A DNA stretch of 64,000 bases from NCBI GenBank assembly GCA_964389675.1, contig CAYMEV010000003.1, positions 65,109-129,108 of the forward strand. The letters run 5' to 3'. Every line of letters begins with the position of its first letter. Within the stretch, counting starts at the first letter, position 1. The stretch is from an uncultured Candidatus Sumerlaeota bacterium. GTDB lineage: Bacteria; CAYMEV01. Shown here piece by piece: positions 32,111-44,716 of this stretch. The position numbers and the translations under genes are program-made. Below the pieces are notes generated by a model that ran no database searches, had not been told where the DNA came from, and saw nothing but the letters and a program-made list of their open reading frames with translations.

Positions 32111-32139
32111 TTGCAAATATAATTTTCTTGTTTTATAAT
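32111..32139 (+). promoter_or_regulatory. Candidate sigma70 promoter (TTGCAA, 17-nt spacer, TATAAT) for the FHA/fliA/T3SS operon
   Basis: TTGCAA at 32111-32116 and a perfect TATAAT at 32134-32139, 59 nt upstream of the 32198 start. Confidence 0.45.
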
Positions 32140-32197
32140 TTTAGCTGTGAAGTTTATAAGATAGCCTCAATTATGATCTTAAAATGGAGTATATGAT

Positions 32198-33124
32198 ATG
32201 GCTGAAATTGTATACAGGGAAAACCAGGAAGAAAGGCTTATAACCCTTGATAAGGATTCATTTGTGATTGGCAGAAGCCCAAGCTGTGAAATTGCAATAA
32301 GCAGTGACACAATATCAAGAAGGCATGCAAAACTGGAAAAAAGGTCAAACCGGTATTATATTACTGACCTTGGAAGCAGGAATGGTGTTTTTGTCAATGA
32401 TGAAAAGATAGTTGAATCAGTACTGAAGGATGGAGATTTTATCAAGCTTGGTGTTTTTGAGTTTACCTTTCATGATAAAGAGCCTGTTATTGTAGACAGC
32501 AATAAGACAATACAGCAGGAGCAGAAGACCATTATGCTGGAAAACCCGCTTGAGAAATTCATATTAAAGGACCTTCCGGCATCTGAGGATACATATATTG
32601 AAAAAAAAGAAAAAGATAAAGTAATTGAAGATGATATAATTGCTGAAGACCGGCAGGAAAGTACGCCTGATGATGATGAAAGCGAAATTGAATCAGATGG
32701 ATACTTCCCCAACCTTCTGATCTTTCATGATGAAAAGGCATTCAGGGCTACCATAAAAAAGAACCGTAATACGATCGGAGGTTCTGCGATTTCTGATATA
32801 CCCATAAATCACGAAGGTTTTCCTGAATCAGCCTGTATTATCAGGAATGAAAAGGGCATTTTCTATTTAGTGGATGAATTTCAGACAGGGGAGATCATGT
32901 ATAATAATGTCCCTGTAATACATAAAAGACTGTTTGATAAGATGATATTTATGATTCAGGATGTGACTTTCCAGTTTATTTCCAATAAGAAGGGTGCTGA
33001 AGCAGTTTTTGAAAAAGTTTATGCTGTCTTCAGGATTTTTATTGAAAAACCTCTGATAGGCATGGCATTTGTTGCTGGAATTCTTATTCTGATCTCTCTT
33101 CTTCTTGTTATATTTTTATTATAA
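32198..33124 (+). CDS. FHA-domain protein (one clear and one probable FHA) with a C-terminal TM anchor; SctD-like cytoplasmic module
   Basis: FHA motif VIGRSP.CEIAI..DTISRRHAKL....YYITDLGSRNGVFVN. A second FHA-like block (NTIGGS...ACIIRNEKGIFYLVD). A C-terminal hydrophobic helix MAFVAGILILISLLLVIFLL. Confidence 0.65.
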   Translation: MAEIVYRENQEERLITLDKDSFVIGRSPSCEIAISSDTISRRHAKLEKRSNRYYITDLGSRNGVFVNDEKIVESVLKDGDFIKLGVFEFTFHDKEPVIVDSNKTIQQEQKTIMLENPLEKFILKDLPASEDTYIEKKEKDKVIEDDIIAEDRQESTPDDDESEIESDGYFPNLLIFHDEKAFRATIKKNRNTIGGSAISDIPINHEGFPESACIIRNEKGIFYLVDEFQTGEIMYNNVPVIHKRLFDKMIFMIQDVTFQFISNKKGAEAVFEKVYAVFRIFIEKPLIGMAFVAGILILISLLLVIFLL

Positions 33125-33140
33125 AAATTAAGGATATTTT

Positions 33141-42086: not shown

Positions 42087-42098
42087 TACGATTAATTA

Positions 42099-42905
42099 AT
42101 GGATGTATTACAGACATTCGTCAGCAGGCTGGGGTTCAAACTGGATGCTATAAGGGCTGTTATGATATTTGGGCTTGTATACGCAAGAATGATGCCTATT
42201 ATTGCAATGACTCCCTTTCTGGGGGGACAGCTGATCACTGCAAGGATAAAGATAGTTGTCGCATTGCTTTTGACTATTGTAATTGCCCCTTATTTCTATA
42301 TCAATGCAGGGGCGGTACCGGGCAATTATTCAGTGATCTTCTTTTTTATGAAAGAGGCTTTTATTGGCTTTGTCATAGGGTTTTATGTAAGCCTGATATA
42401 CTATGCGATACAGGGGGCGGGATTCATAATTGACCAGTCAAGGGGCCAGACCCAGGGTGCAAGTTTTGATCCTTTCCTTTCAGCTCAGGTTTCAAATGTG
42501 GGTGAATACCTTAATTTGCTTTCAATTGTATTATTCTTCATTATCAACGGGCACCTCATTTTCATCAATGAGGTCAGCAGGAGCTATTTTATCATTCCTG
42601 TAGATAGTTTTCCTCCCTTTCAGTACCTGCACCTGATGACCATATTAAAATTTTCATCCAGTTTTTTCGTAATTGCAGTAAGGCTGTCAATTCCGGTGCT
42701 TCTTGTGATATTATCCGTGGATATTCTTATGGGGATAGTAAATAAGCTTGCCGCGAGCGTAAATGTATTTTTTATAAGCATGCCTCTCAAGGCTTTTATC
42801 GGGATCCTTATATTCCTGATAGCATTGCCTGTCTATTTTAGTGAGATAAAGGATATACTGCTTACTATAATAGAGCATATCAAGACATTTCTGGGAATAT
42901 TGTAA
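42099..42905 (+). CDS. fliR: T3SS export gate protein FliR/SctT
   Basis: 268 aa polytopic membrane protein in the conserved position after fliQ. Confidence 0.85.
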   Translation: MDVLQTFVSRLGFKLDAIRAVMIFGLVYARMMPIIAMTPFLGGQLITARIKIVVALLLTIVIAPYFYINAGAVPGNYSVIFFFMKEAFIGFVIGFYVSLIYYAIQGAGFIIDQSRGQTQGASFDPFLSAQVSNVGEYLNLLSIVLFFIINGHLIFINEVSRSYFIIPVDSFPPFQYLHLMTILKFSSSFFVIAVRLSIPVLLVILSVDILMGIVNKLAASVNVFFISMPLKAFIGILIFLIALPVYFSEIKDILLTIIEHIKTFLGIL

Positions 42906-43957
42906 TGGCCGGGGATAAAACAGAACAACCGACTGATCATAAGCTGAAAGAACAGAGAAAAAAGGGGAATATCTCCAAGGGAAAGGATATTGTAGGCGCA
43001 CTCCAGTTTGTTATCGGATTTACAATCATATATTTTACTCTGGGTACTCTTGGGGAGAACTTCATCGTTCTTCTCAGGAAATACTTTGACTTTAATGTTT
43101 ATATGCCATTTCAGCCCAGCGCAGTCGATTTTTTCCTTCAGGATACCATAGCCTTTGTTTTAATAAATGTAATACCGCTTTTTGCAGTAGTACTGCTTAT
43201 AGGAGTGTTTGCCAACTATTTCCAGGTCGGCAGTCTCTTTACCATTGAACCTGTTAAACCGCAGTTTAAGAGGCTGAATCCGATCCAGGGCTTTAAAAAT
43301 ATGTTTAAGGTAAGCTCTCTTTTTGAGCTTTTTAAGAATATACTCAAGATCTCGCTATCCTTCTTTGTGTTTTATAAATCAATCAGGGGGGAACTGGGGG
43401 TTATACTCAATTATCTAAGGATAGAACCCCTGATCGCCTACCGCCATTTCAGCAAAGTCCTTTATCTTATAGTTTTCAAAATTTCTTTGATATATATTAT
43501 AATTTCAATTATTGATTATGTATTTCAGAAAAAGCAGTTTATGAAACAGATGAAGATGTCAAAACAGGAAGTGAAGGATGAATACAAGCAGCTTGAAGGG
43601 GACCCCCAGGTAAAAGGGCAGAGACAGCAGTTATATCAGGAGATTGGCCAGCATAATATGGTTCAGGATGTCAAAAATGCATCCGTTGTCGTAGTAAACC
43701 CTGATGAGATTGCAATAGCCCTGACATATAATAATAAGACGATGAATGCTCCCAGGATTACAGCAAAAGGCAGGAATGAAATAGCTAAATCTATCAGGGA
43801 GATAGCAAAAGAATACAATATACCAATAGTCACAAATATCAATCTTGCTCATTCGCTGCTTGAGCTTGACCTCGGGCAGGACGTCCCCGAAAGCCTATAC
43901 GAGGCCGTAGCTGAAGTGTTAAGGTATGTTCATGAGCTTGCCAGAGAGGAAGAGTAA
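42905..43957 (+). CDS. flhB: T3SS export switch protein FlhB/SctU, with NPDE in place of the NPTH autocleavage motif
   Basis: VVVVNPDEIAIALTYNNKTMNAPRITAKG aligns to VIVTNPTHYAVALQYDENKMSAPKVVAKG. The conserved EGDPQVKG block and four N-terminal TM helices are present. Confidence 0.9.
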   Translation: MAGDKTEQPTDHKLKEQRKKGNISKGKDIVGALQFVIGFTIIYFTLGTLGENFIVLLRKYFDFNVYMPFQPSAVDFFLQDTIAFVLINVIPLFAVVLLIGVFANYFQVGSLFTIEPVKPQFKRLNPIQGFKNMFKVSSLFELFKNILKISLSFFVFYKSIRGELGVILNYLRIEPLIAYRHFSKVLYLIVFKISLIYIIISIIDYVFQKKQFMKQMKMSKQEVKDEYKQLEGDPQVKGQRQQLYQEIGQHNMVQDVKNASVVVVNPDEIAIALTYNNKTMNAPRITAKGRNEIAKSIREIAKEYNIPIVTNINLAHSLLELDLGQDVPESLYEAVAEVLRYVHELAREEE

Positions 43958-44716
43958 ATGGAAAATGAGCCTTTATTCTCCTTCTATGATCCCCTGAGCG
44001 CTTTTACTGCTCCTGATCAGCATTACTGGAATATATACTCAAGCATAATGCTTGACAGCTCAATTGAGGGATATACAGATAAAAAGGAATCAATTGTCAG
44101 GGAGCTTAACCTGGTTTCAGCCTTTGACTATGAGGATGCCCATATAAGAAAGCTTAATGACAGCCTTTATATATCCCCGATATATCTGAATGTATTCCTG
44201 AAGTCAGGCAAAGACGGCGGAAGAGAGATAGAGAATATCTTTCCGAAGATGATAGATACATTAAGAAAGGTCAAGAGCACACAGAATATCTCCTCAATAT
44301 ACCACAATGACTGGTATGTGCATCAGATCGATATTGATGTCAAAGAACCGTTCTCAATGCTCCTGATGGGAACGGAGAAGGAGATTGAAAACAGGATGCC
44401 TGATCTGAAAGGAAGGCCTGATACTGATGACATGCATCTGTTGATCAAGCATTCAGAAGCAAGGAAGAGGCTTGTCCATGCTGCTGAAATTATAGAAAAG
44501 AGGCCGAGAAAAAGCCTTCACATACTGAAAAACATCATATCCGTACTTGATCTGCTGAATGAATTTGATGAGAGAAGCCTTATAAGAATTCCACTGGAAA
44601 ATATCAATAATATCTCCAGGGTCTACAGCGGCCGAAAAATCAGGATATCTGATGCAGTCAAAGCCCTGAAGAAGCTTGATAATGACGAGATACTGGATTT
44701 CCTGGATTATTTTTAG
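43958..44716 (+). CDS. Hypothetical protein
   Basis: 252-aa ORF immediately after flhB. No recognisable motifs. Occupies the position where flhA would normally be expected. Confidence 0.4.
   Translation: MENEPLFSFYDPLSAFTAPDQHYWNIYSSIMLDSSIEGYTDKKESIVRELNLVSAFDYEDAHIRKLNDSLYISPIYLNVFLKSGKDGGREIENIFPKMIDTLRKVKSTQNISSIYHNDWYVHQIDIDVKEPFSMLLMGTEKEIENRMPDLKGRPDTDDMHLLIKHSEARKRLVHAAEIIEKRPRKSLHILKNIISVLDLLNEFDERSLIRIPLENINNISRVYSGRKIRISDAVKALKKLDNDEILDFLDYF

Follow-up and report, generated by a model that had tools for sequence, protein, structure and literature searches.

Does a gene cluster which has the gene order of a flagellar export operon, but a ring protein of the injectisome type, serve a flagellum, an injectisome, or a machine which is neither of the two? 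This question is raised by one T3SS (type III secretion system) locus in a stretch of 64,000 nucleotides (64 kb) of contig CAYMEV010000003.1 (positions 65,109 to 129,108). We call this whole stretch the window, and all positions below are numbered from its first letter unless they follow the handle of another locus. Between 32198 and 45612 it holds one tightly packed operon of 17 genes on the + strand, and open reading frame (ORF) calls together with scans by the Pfam and NCBIfam models found all of its ORFs intact. In our judgement this operon likely encodes a functional non-flagellar export apparatus resembling the T3SS* of Myxococcus, which has neither a secretin nor a SctD ring, and it belongs to a conserved clade found in a deep bacterial lineage, in the Acidobacteriota and in at least one metagenome-assembled genome (MAG) of the Planctomycetota.

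Organization of the operon

The 5' half of the operon encodes, in this order, an FHA/transmembrane (TM) protein, a sigma factor of the sigma-28 family, a SctI-like protein, the SctJ lipoprotein, a FliG-like protein, SctL, SctN and SctO; the 3' half continues with a FliK/SctP-like protein, an FHA::SctQ fusion, a FliO-like protein, SctR, SctS, SctT, SctU, a protein of 252 amino acids (aa) and a GT2 glycosyltransferase (Table 1). Every intergenic gap is of 52 nt or less and eight of the junctions are overlapping. Co-oriented genes in flagellar order had already been described in an initial annotation of the window, and the ORF calls and model scans reproduced them. The limits of the cluster have to be redrawn at both ends. 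Position 32111, taken before as its start, is the place of a promoter match and not of a gene start; this promoter is a consensus match only, and the total of such matches in the scanned region is not above the shuffled expectation. The cluster had been made to end at 44716, whereas the operon runs through the 252-aa gene and the GT2 gene up to 45612, and does so likewise in L004, a closely related locus whose SctN is 94% identical to that of the window. The gap of 237 nt reported after the sigma factor gene was not reproduced either: it is of 52 nt once the 153-aa ORF of the SctI-like protein is used, an ORF with a full-length identity of 81% to its L004 counterpart.

A sigma-28 consensus (TAAA-N15-GCCGATAA) was also sought near the operon, and gave no convincing intergenic match. 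At the position which flhA holds after flhB in flagellar operons, the initial annotation had seen an unrelated hypothetical gene, and this agrees with our scans: its 252-aa product matched no Pfam or NCBIfam family, and the one homologue detected for it is that of L004 (55% identity; ratio of nonsynonymous to synonymous substitution rates, dN/dS, of ~0.19). The G+C content over the operon (0.35-0.45) is the same as in its flanks, and housekeeping genes are found on both sides. A recent horizontal acquisition of the operon was considered and rejected, no compositional signal being present.

Table 1. Genes of the T3SS operon of the window, with the candidate promoter upstream of them (aa, amino acids; TM, transmembrane)
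Feature	Positions	Strand	Evidence and remarks
Candidate sigma-70-type promoter	32111..32139	+	TTGCAA-17-TATAAT, in the 188-nt divergent intergenic region upstream of the operon
FHA/TM protein, 308 aa	32198..33124	+	Pfam FHA 97 bits, Yop-YscD_cpl 69 bits
Sigma factor, FliA/WhiG family, 234 aa	33141..33845	+	sigma-70 r2/r4; TIGR02479 148 bits (cut-off 189.6)
SctI-like protein, 153 aa	33898..34359	+	TIGR02497 22.8 bits (cut-off 23.45); Pfam T3SS_basalb_I 28.4 bits
SctJ ring lipoprotein, 266 aa	34371..35171	+	Pfam YscJ_FliF; TIGR02544 158 bits
FliG-like protein, 315 aa, all-helical	35176..36123	+	Pfam FliG_M 28.3 bits (gathering score 25)
SctL/FliH stator	36126..36770	+	FliH 75 bits; HrpE/YscL models 87-121 bits
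SctN/FliI export ATPase	36767..38101	+	FliI_clade2 638.4 bits; SctN models 638.2 and 636.0 bits
SctO/FliJ stalk	38098..38601	+	YscO-like 54.5 bits; FliJ 36-43 bits
FliK/SctP-like protein, 221 aa	38594..39259	+	C-terminal T3S4 (Flg_hook) domain, 29.3 bits (gathering score 29.8)
FHA::SctQ fusion, 487 aa	39246..40709	+	N-terminal FHA, FliM-like middle, C-terminal FliN/SpoA (FliMN_C)
FliO-like protein, 127 aa, single-pass TM	40684..41067	+	directly upstream of sctR; weak FliZ/FliO match, E 0.0025
SctR/FliP gate subunit	41048..41815	+	SctR models 223-248 bits; FliP 214 bits
SctS/FliQ	41817..42086	+	FliQ 82.8 bits; SctS 73.7 bits
SctT/FliR	42099..42905	+	SctT 154.6 bits; FliR 153.2 bits
SctU/FlhB switch protein	42905..43957	+	SctU 342.7 bits; FlhB 341.2 bits
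252-aa protein, no TM helix	43958..44716	+	at the position of flhA after flhB in flagellar operons
GT2 glycosyltransferase	44722..45612	+	5-nt gap; last gene of the operon by spacing; same place in L004

Ring and rod proteins

The sole clear-cut assignment which the models allow is that of the ring protein, and it is to SctJ. The protein scores 158.1 bits with the SctJ model (cut-off 161.95) as against 42 bits with FliF, the C-terminal part of FliF is absent from it, and it has a lipobox (FVSC, with Cys20) and a C-terminal TM helix. FliF of flagella is an MS-ring protein of about 500-560 aa, and FliG is bound by its C-terminus. In the true flagellar loci of the same data set, FliF has a length of 496-555 aa, to be compared with the 266 aa of the ring protein of the window. 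Hence, the earlier description of the MS-ring gene as that of a 266-aa lipoprotein of the SctJ type holds.

The label "fliE-like" given to the preceding gene does not. When profiles were compared with hhalign, the family of its 153-aa product matched SctI at 80% (E 1.4e-5), SctF at 14% and FliE at 0.4%, a value on which the FliE identity was ruled out. The conserved C-terminal helix of this SctI-like family reads SP..L...Q..Y....E..SKVV.Q...GIKT....QV.

Components sought and not found

We compared all ORFs of the window by BLASTP with flagellar references from E. coli and with injectisome references from Yersinia, Shigella, Ralstonia and Bradyrhizobium, and SctV was sought in addition by tblastn with the SctV of a relative. 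The negative results cover the window and, for the relatives, flanks of +/-10 kb; a Logan contig extends the view by 8.5 kb past the window end. Apart from the genes of Table 1, no FlhA/SctV, secretin, SctD, FliF, FliG, FliE, FliM, SctK or SctF was found in the 64 kb by BLASTP or tblastn, and the 8.5 kb past the window end have no T3SS genes. No gene for a rod, hook, filament or stator (FlgB/C/E, FliE, FliC, MotAB) was found in the 64 kb or in the 8.5 kb beyond. Over this distance, the reference searches thus agree with the earlier statement that no rod, hook, filament or flhA gene is nearby. The sole candidate for the periplasmic ring of SctD is the product of the first gene of the operon, 32198-33124, which ends in a TM helix and has no periplasmic part. 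Genes for a translocon, for an LcrH-type TPR chaperone or for a Tad system are absent from the window.

A secretin profile hidden Markov model (HMM) gave no match in the window, nor within +/-10 kb in any of the ~45 loci of the two related groups described below, A and B. The same HMM detects secretins in the injectisome loci of the same set which come from the Planctomycetes-Verrucomicrobia-Chlamydiae (PVC) group and from the Desulfovibrionales.

Related loci and the host

SctN has thousands of homologues, and those which are 61-69% identical to it come mostly from Acidobacteriota, where dozens of related loci are found. The loci of group A have the order of the window, namely sigma-SctI-SctJ-(x)-SctL-SctN-SctO-SctP-FHA::SctQ-FliO-SctR-SctS-SctT-SctU, and every one of them which was examined carries an N-terminal FHA domain on SctQ. 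The members of this group are L004, four loci of Bryobacterales (L017, L025, L032, L046), two of Acidobacteria (L003, L010), L087, L089, and the locus of a Planctomycetota MAG (L019). Group B, from Pyrinomonadaceae, Blastocatellia and Chloracidobacterium (L008-L049), is a sister family with a rearranged order, SctV-SctJ-(~335-aa FliG-like)-SctL-SctN-SctU-SctQ-FliO-SctR-SctS-SctT; its SctQ matches Pfam FliM and FliN and is without FHA. L003 and L032 encode SctV two or three genes past SctU; the loci of L004, L087 and L089 lack it, as does that of the window. That the gene is missing beside flhB is therefore a poor guide to whether the genome lacks it.

Complete genomes of Acidobacteriota with the family exist (for example OZ243957.1 and OZ252034.1), and a MAG of Chloracidobacterium (Chloracidobacterium sp. 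CP2_5A) holds the SctL-SctN genes of the family. A plasmid collection had no member of it; the highest identities there were 57-59%, to YscN and to a clostridial FliI. We found no description of this family of Acidobacteriota in the literature, and the family, which is conserved, is apparently undescribed.

Two side observations concern the related loci. In L087 (3677-7684), a 1335-aa protein with a peptidoglycan-binding domain is encoded within the T3SS locus, between the FliG-like/SctL pair and the sigma factor. In L003 (16534-19784) and L089 (16325-17232), TPR proteins of ~150 aa are paired with small unknown proteins among SctT, SctU and SctV; these pairs, which are reminiscent of the LcrH-type pairs of chaperone and substrate, are absent from the window.

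As to the host of the window operon, the Lon protease (1566-3872) is 45-49% identical to the best matches from named organisms, and these are spread over many phyla; closer matches (58-75%) are a handful of metagenomic proteins only. With no more than 49% over many phyla, the host belongs to a deep, uncharacterised lineage; neither a myxobacterial nor an acidobacterial identity is evident.

Proteins of flagellar type

Between the ring gene and the stator gene, at the position of fliG or sctK, the operon encodes a 315-aa protein. By hhalign it matches FliG at 84% (E 7e-6), and a SctK identity was ruled out at 0.4%. P0257, a remote relative of this protein, matches FliG_M and FliG_C above threshold. 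FliG domains are matched too by the ~335-aa protein found at the same position in group B, whose family aligns with FliG over 170 columns at 69%, and by a 166-aa protein beside SctL in L087. The protein of the window is fast-evolving and its homologues are few (only three among 5.8 billion proteins, only four representatives among 1.84 billion), so that no deep alignment is possible. The AlphaFold2 models have a predicted local distance difference test score (pLDDT) of 44 with three sequences and of 60 with six; when the low-confidence model was searched against the PDB with Foldseek, the 11 top matches were all FliG and none of them was individually significant, which is soft support only. 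From these matches, the 315-aa protein is probably a FliG derivative at the position held by SctK in injectisomes.

Two more proteins of flagellar type have weak direct matches in the window (Table 1) and clearer counterparts elsewhere. The orthologues of the FliK/SctP-like protein in L002, L087 and L089 carry PF02120, and in these same three loci the proteins at the FliO position match Pfam FliO.

Flagellar versus non-flagellar affinity

For the core proteins, the scores of the flagellar and non-flagellar NCBIfam equivalog models are nearly equal, SctS scoring somewhat higher with the flagellar model and SctR with the non-flagellar ones (Table 1). The identities of SctN point the same way: YscN shares 57% with it, a clostridial FliI 59% and the FliI of E. 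coli 45%. We built neighbour-joining (NJ) trees. In the tree of SctN, rooted on F1 subunits, groups A and B form one clade (87% bootstrap), in which the window is joined to L004 and L007 with 100%; its placement relative to the flagellar and the injectisome ATPases has a support of 25%. In the trees of SctU and SctR, groups A and B stand with the injectisome references, the two flagellar references being outside, and in the SctU tree the node which excludes them has a support of 82%. In the phylogenetic check suggested in the initial annotation, SctU and SctR thus side with the injectisome references, and SctN shows a clade of its own. The lineage may be placed near the base of the non-flagellar systems, and these crude trees agree with that placement.

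Of the two readings which the initial annotation had left side by side, a reduced or repurposed flagellar T3SS and an unclassified T3SS lineage, the second is supported by a clade which spans several phyla, stands apart from the sampled flagellar and injectisome ATPases and has equal model scores. An ordinary flagellar operon, slightly diverged, finds no support, in view of SctJ, of the SctI-like protein and of the grouping of SctU and SctR.

The comparison with L004 informs on selection. Synonymous sites are saturated (proportion of synonymous differences, pS, 0.66-0.81), yet the proteins keep an identity of 53-96%; wherever dN/dS could be obtained, its values range from 0.008 to 0.19, the 252-aa and FliG-like genes included. 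Purifying selection is therefore strong, acting on all genes, and the operon is not a relic; the cluster is maintained by selection.

FHA proteins, sigma factor and SctU motif

In the FHA/TM protein at the head of the operon, a canonical FHA domain (GR...SRRH...NG) at the N-terminus is followed by an acidic linker, then by a second FHA-like domain and lastly by a TM helix at ~279-308. Its phosphothreonine-binding motifs are intact; it is tail-anchored and has no periplasmic domain. It had been presented as an FHA-FHA membrane protein, a description in which the first FHA domain and the TM helix stand, the second FHA domain being only weakly detectable (E 0.045). The loci of Pyrinomonadaceae in group B encode, beside SctV, a ~345-aa protein of the same architecture (FHA-like, FHA-like, C-terminal TM). 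Homology between the two was tried and rejected, as hhalign gives only 18%, and we therefore claim for them a shared architecture alone. The other FHA protein of the operon is the 487-aa FHA::SctQ, in which FliM and FliN are indeed represented by one FHA-fused protein, as had been noted before; the middle part of the SctQ of L087 matches Pfam FliM with 43 bits. The TagH model is among the matches of both FHA proteins.

Some neighbouring genes touch on this subject. An FHA-GGDEF diguanylate cyclase is encoded at 45747-46703, 134 nt past the operon, and not at that place in L004; counting this one, 15 kb encode three proteins which have a canonical FHA domain. Further downstream are the genes of a 667-aa Ser/Thr kinase (49538-51541) and of a 1236-aa AAA/TPR protein (60074-63784), and the gene directly after SctU in L087 (L087 18213-21335) is that of a Pkinase-TPR protein longer than 1200 aa. 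The kinase and AAA/TPR proteins are possible partners of the FHA domains.

A homologue of the sigma factor is found at the same place in L004, L017, L025, L032, L046 and L087. The motif of SctU, VVVNPDEIAIAL, has NPDE instead of the autocleavage motif NPTH, which is the alteration reported earlier for FlhB. NPDE is found also in L004, NPEH in L003 and NPHE in L019, and most Acidobacteriota have NPTH.

Comparison with known systems

The secretin-less "Myxo" non-flagellar T3SS (NF-T3SS) of the Cystobacterineae were described by Abby and Rocha as the earliest-branching non-flagellar systems (PMC3459982). They have the export gate RSTUV, the ATPase, SctJ and SctI, with SctD in the long locus, and are without secretin, SctF, FliE and FliG (PMC3459982). 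In M. xanthus, prey lysis depends on the long locus, T3SS* (MXAN_2434-2464), along with the Kil/Tad pilus (PMC10433427, PMC12428579, PMC12075869), and FliO is present in both loci of this species, T3SS* and T3SS(2) (MXAN_5643-5654) (PMC12248157). For Acidobacteria, the tables of Abby and Rocha show no such system, only the flagellum of Acidobacterium capsulatum (PMC3459982).

If one takes the composition of the Myxo NF-T3SS/T3SS* from PMC3459982 and PMC10433427, these systems and that of the window both keep SctJ, SctI, SctQ, SctL, SctN and SctRSTU, and both are without a secretin, a recognisable needle and a translocon. Both carry a FliO homologue, the direct match in the window being weak and backed by position and orthologues. 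Both can be read as intermediates between flagellum and injectisome, and both are conserved under selection. As judged from the published gene content, the differences are that the host of the window is not evidently a myxobacterium, that SctV and LcrH-type chaperones are absent from the window locus, and that the window operon has the FHA::SctQ fusion, the FliG-like gene, the sigma-28-family factor and the NPDE motif of SctU. Since the composition and the missing parts are the same, the system of the window would work like the Myxo systems, of which the needle-less T3SS* is its nearest analogue among those studied, and may be related to them. The likeness is one of published gene content.

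The Ysc injectisome of Yersinia shares with the window the order of two blocks, sctI-J-(K)-L and sctN-O-P-Q-R-S-T-U, the SctJ lipoprotein, a rod protein of the SctI type and an ATPase at the identity given above. Unlike Ysc, the window locus has no SctC, no periplasmic ring of SctD, no SctF, SctV, gatekeeper, translocon or SctK, and it keeps the FliO-like protein, the FliG-like protein and the features of FliM type. With the flagellar export operon (fliE-fliR/flhBA, as in E. coli; the fla/che operon of B. subtilis is a further example), the gene order of the window is the same throughout, and FliO, a T3S4 protein of FliK type, proteins related to FliG and to FliM/FliN, and a sigma factor of the FliA family are shared. 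However, the window has SctJ for FliF, a SctI-like protein for FliE and an FHA domain in place of the CheY-binding N-terminus of FliM, and no rod, hook, filament, stator or FlhA genes are near.

The type VI secretion system (T6SS) of Pseudomonas aeruginosa is controlled by threonine phosphorylation through Fha1/TagH with PpkA/PppA. As in the T6SS, FHA proteins with intact phosphothreonine motifs are encoded in the secretion locus of the window and kinase genes are nearby; but the machine is a different one, the operon contains no kinase or phosphatase gene, and the link is an analogy.

Other genes of the window

The remaining ORFs of the window encode, according to Pfam, trigger factor, ClpP, Lon, MetH, a decarboxylase sodium pump, an amidase, BirA, NadC, a signal peptidase and signalling proteins. 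Divergent from the operon, on the - strand, is the gene of a PatA_N (DUF4388)-DnaJ protein (31002-32009), an arrangement kept in L004. Genes for surface glycopolymers flank or end the operon: those of an AZOBR_p60025-family protein and of an LA_3751/3752-family glycosyltransferase (28203-30988), and the GT2 gene itself. Two adjacent paralogues of 359 and 347 aa (25988-28112) match no Pfam family, the second being weakly similar to the proteasome beta subunit; with 89-94% identity to the orthologues in L004, both are better conserved than most of the T3SS genes of the operon. The genes of a sodium-pumping decarboxylase (carboxyltransferase, OAD gamma-like, OAD beta; 9371-14989, - strand) adjoin that of a PKD-domain protein. 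Neither rRNA nor tRNA genes were found in the 64 kb, and no Rfam family reaches its gathering score there; this holds also for a cobalamin riboswitch upstream of the gene of the B12-dependent methionine synthase (4553-7858).

Discussion

How would the apparatus work? If SctV is encoded elsewhere, SctR, SctS and SctT, assisted by FliO, would come together with SctU within the SctJ ring of the inner membrane. The cytoplasmic sorting platform (SctQ/L/N/O) would be formed and docked by the FliG-like protein, by FHA::SctQ and by the FHA protein with the tail anchor, and this docking, possibly controlled by Ser/Thr phosphorylation, would replace the SctD-FHA/SctK/SctQ chain of the injectisome. The ATPase complex SctN/L/O would feed the substrates. 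The SctI-like protein would be exported first and form a short periplasmic rod, after which the T3S4 protein and SctU would switch specificity, with an autocleavage that is altered or absent. Late substrates would then reach the periplasm or another envelope system, as proposed for the T3SS* of Myxococcus with the Kil pilus, and the co-encoded sigma factor would couple the expression of target genes to the apparatus.

A number of facts speak against an apparatus of this kind. We know of no T3SS which works without SctV/FlhA; here it is absent from the 64 kb and from the 8.5 kb beyond, and that the genome has it at another place is an assumption. In the window, neither a substrate nor an effector nor a chaperone was identified. 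The genes of the secretin, SctD, needle and translocon could be located elsewhere in the genome. The scores behind the FliG-like assignment are moderate (84% by hhalign, 28 bits in Pfam, a model of low confidence), the link between the FHA domains and phosphorylation is drawn from FHA motifs and nearby kinase genes, and the NPDE motif may be the sign of a SctU switch which departs from the usual mode of action. Finally, the trees are NJ trees of single proteins, and the sequences in them include few flagellar references and none from Myxococcus.

Another explanation is a complete injectisome whose remaining parts (SctV, SctC, SctD, SctF, translocon, effectors) are scattered over the genome. 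SctV must be elsewhere anyway, scattered NF-T3SS loci are documented in Chlamydiales (PMC3459982), SctJ, the SctI-like protein, SctO and SctL/Q/R/S/T/U are compatible with such a system, and SctU and SctR stand with the injectisome references. We nevertheless hold this explanation to be unlikely. A secretin is found in none of the ~45 loci of groups A and B within +/-10 kb, whereas the PVC and Desulfovibrionales loci display, in the same scan, both secretins and full-length SctD; in groups A and B the matches to SctD profiles are weak and concern only FHA-bearing proteins (FHA::SctQ, the FHA/TM protein, the ~345-aa protein of group B). Moreover, the protein at the position of SctK is FliG-like and not SctK, the membrane FHA protein is without a periplasmic ring part, and FliO and a SctQ of FliM type have been kept. 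A further explanation is an unusual but true flagellum, its rod, hook, filament, stator and FlhA genes being elsewhere. The order fliE-F-G-H-I-J-K-(M/N)-O-P-Q-R-flhB, the sigma factor of the FliA family and the FliO-, FliG- and FliK-like proteins would all be expected of it; the NCBI Prokaryotic Genome Annotation Pipeline (PGAP) calls some relatives FliI, the ATPase scores highest with FliI_clade2, by a margin of 0.2 bits, and a FliI of firmicute type is next to the clade in the ATPase tree, with 25% support. A flagellum is highly unlikely all the same: the ring protein is a 266-aa SctJ lipoprotein (158 against 42 bits for FliF), the rod protein is SctI and not FliE, and the N-terminus of SctQ is FHA. 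No match to FlgB/C/E, FliE, FliC or Mot is found in the window or in the related loci, whereas FliF and FliG adjoin FliI in the true flagellar loci of the same scan. SctU and SctR, moreover, fall with the injectisome references.

One may ask, too, whether the operon is a decaying remnant which no longer works and has lost SctV. SctV is missing where some relatives have it, the SctU motif is altered and several parts score just below the cut-offs. But all 17 ORFs are intact, with ends overlapping or near-abutting, dN/dS against L004 is as low as given above, and the arrangement without SctV is kept in L004, L087 and L089, so that a remnant is hardly credible.

Beyond the non-flagellar export apparatus, which remains our preferred reading, a wider evolutionary interpretation can be offered only tentatively, and we ourselves find it rather doubtful. 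Groups A and B together would be an as yet undescribed "proto-injectisome" lineage spanning several phyla, in which the parts of FliG, FliM, FliO and FliK, a sigma-28-type factor and the flagellar order were kept, FliF and FliE had already been replaced by SctJ and SctI, and a secretin was never acquired. As a living intermediate, it would be no less basal than the systems of the Myxococcales.

Significance

The origin of the injectisome from the flagellum has been argued mainly from one intermediate, the secretin-less system of the Myxococcales, and the window provides a second setting. Compared with what is reported of the Myxococcales loci, it has retained more traits of the flagellum, namely the full gene order, a FliG-like protein, a SctQ of FliM type, FliO, a protein of FliK type and a sigma factor of FliA type, alongside SctJ and SctI. 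Should the family be basal, it becomes testable in what sequence parts were exchanged, and also where SctK and the FHA-based docking of the sorting platform came from. If the proto-injectisome interpretation is true, the SctK position would descend from FliG, and FHA would have entered the sorting platform before SctD existed. There is also a functional question, the role of a T3SS without an outer-membrane channel in abundant soil bacteria. As the SctL-SctN genes are present in the Chloracidobacterium MAG, at least one cultured genus appears to carry the family, and experiments would be possible there.

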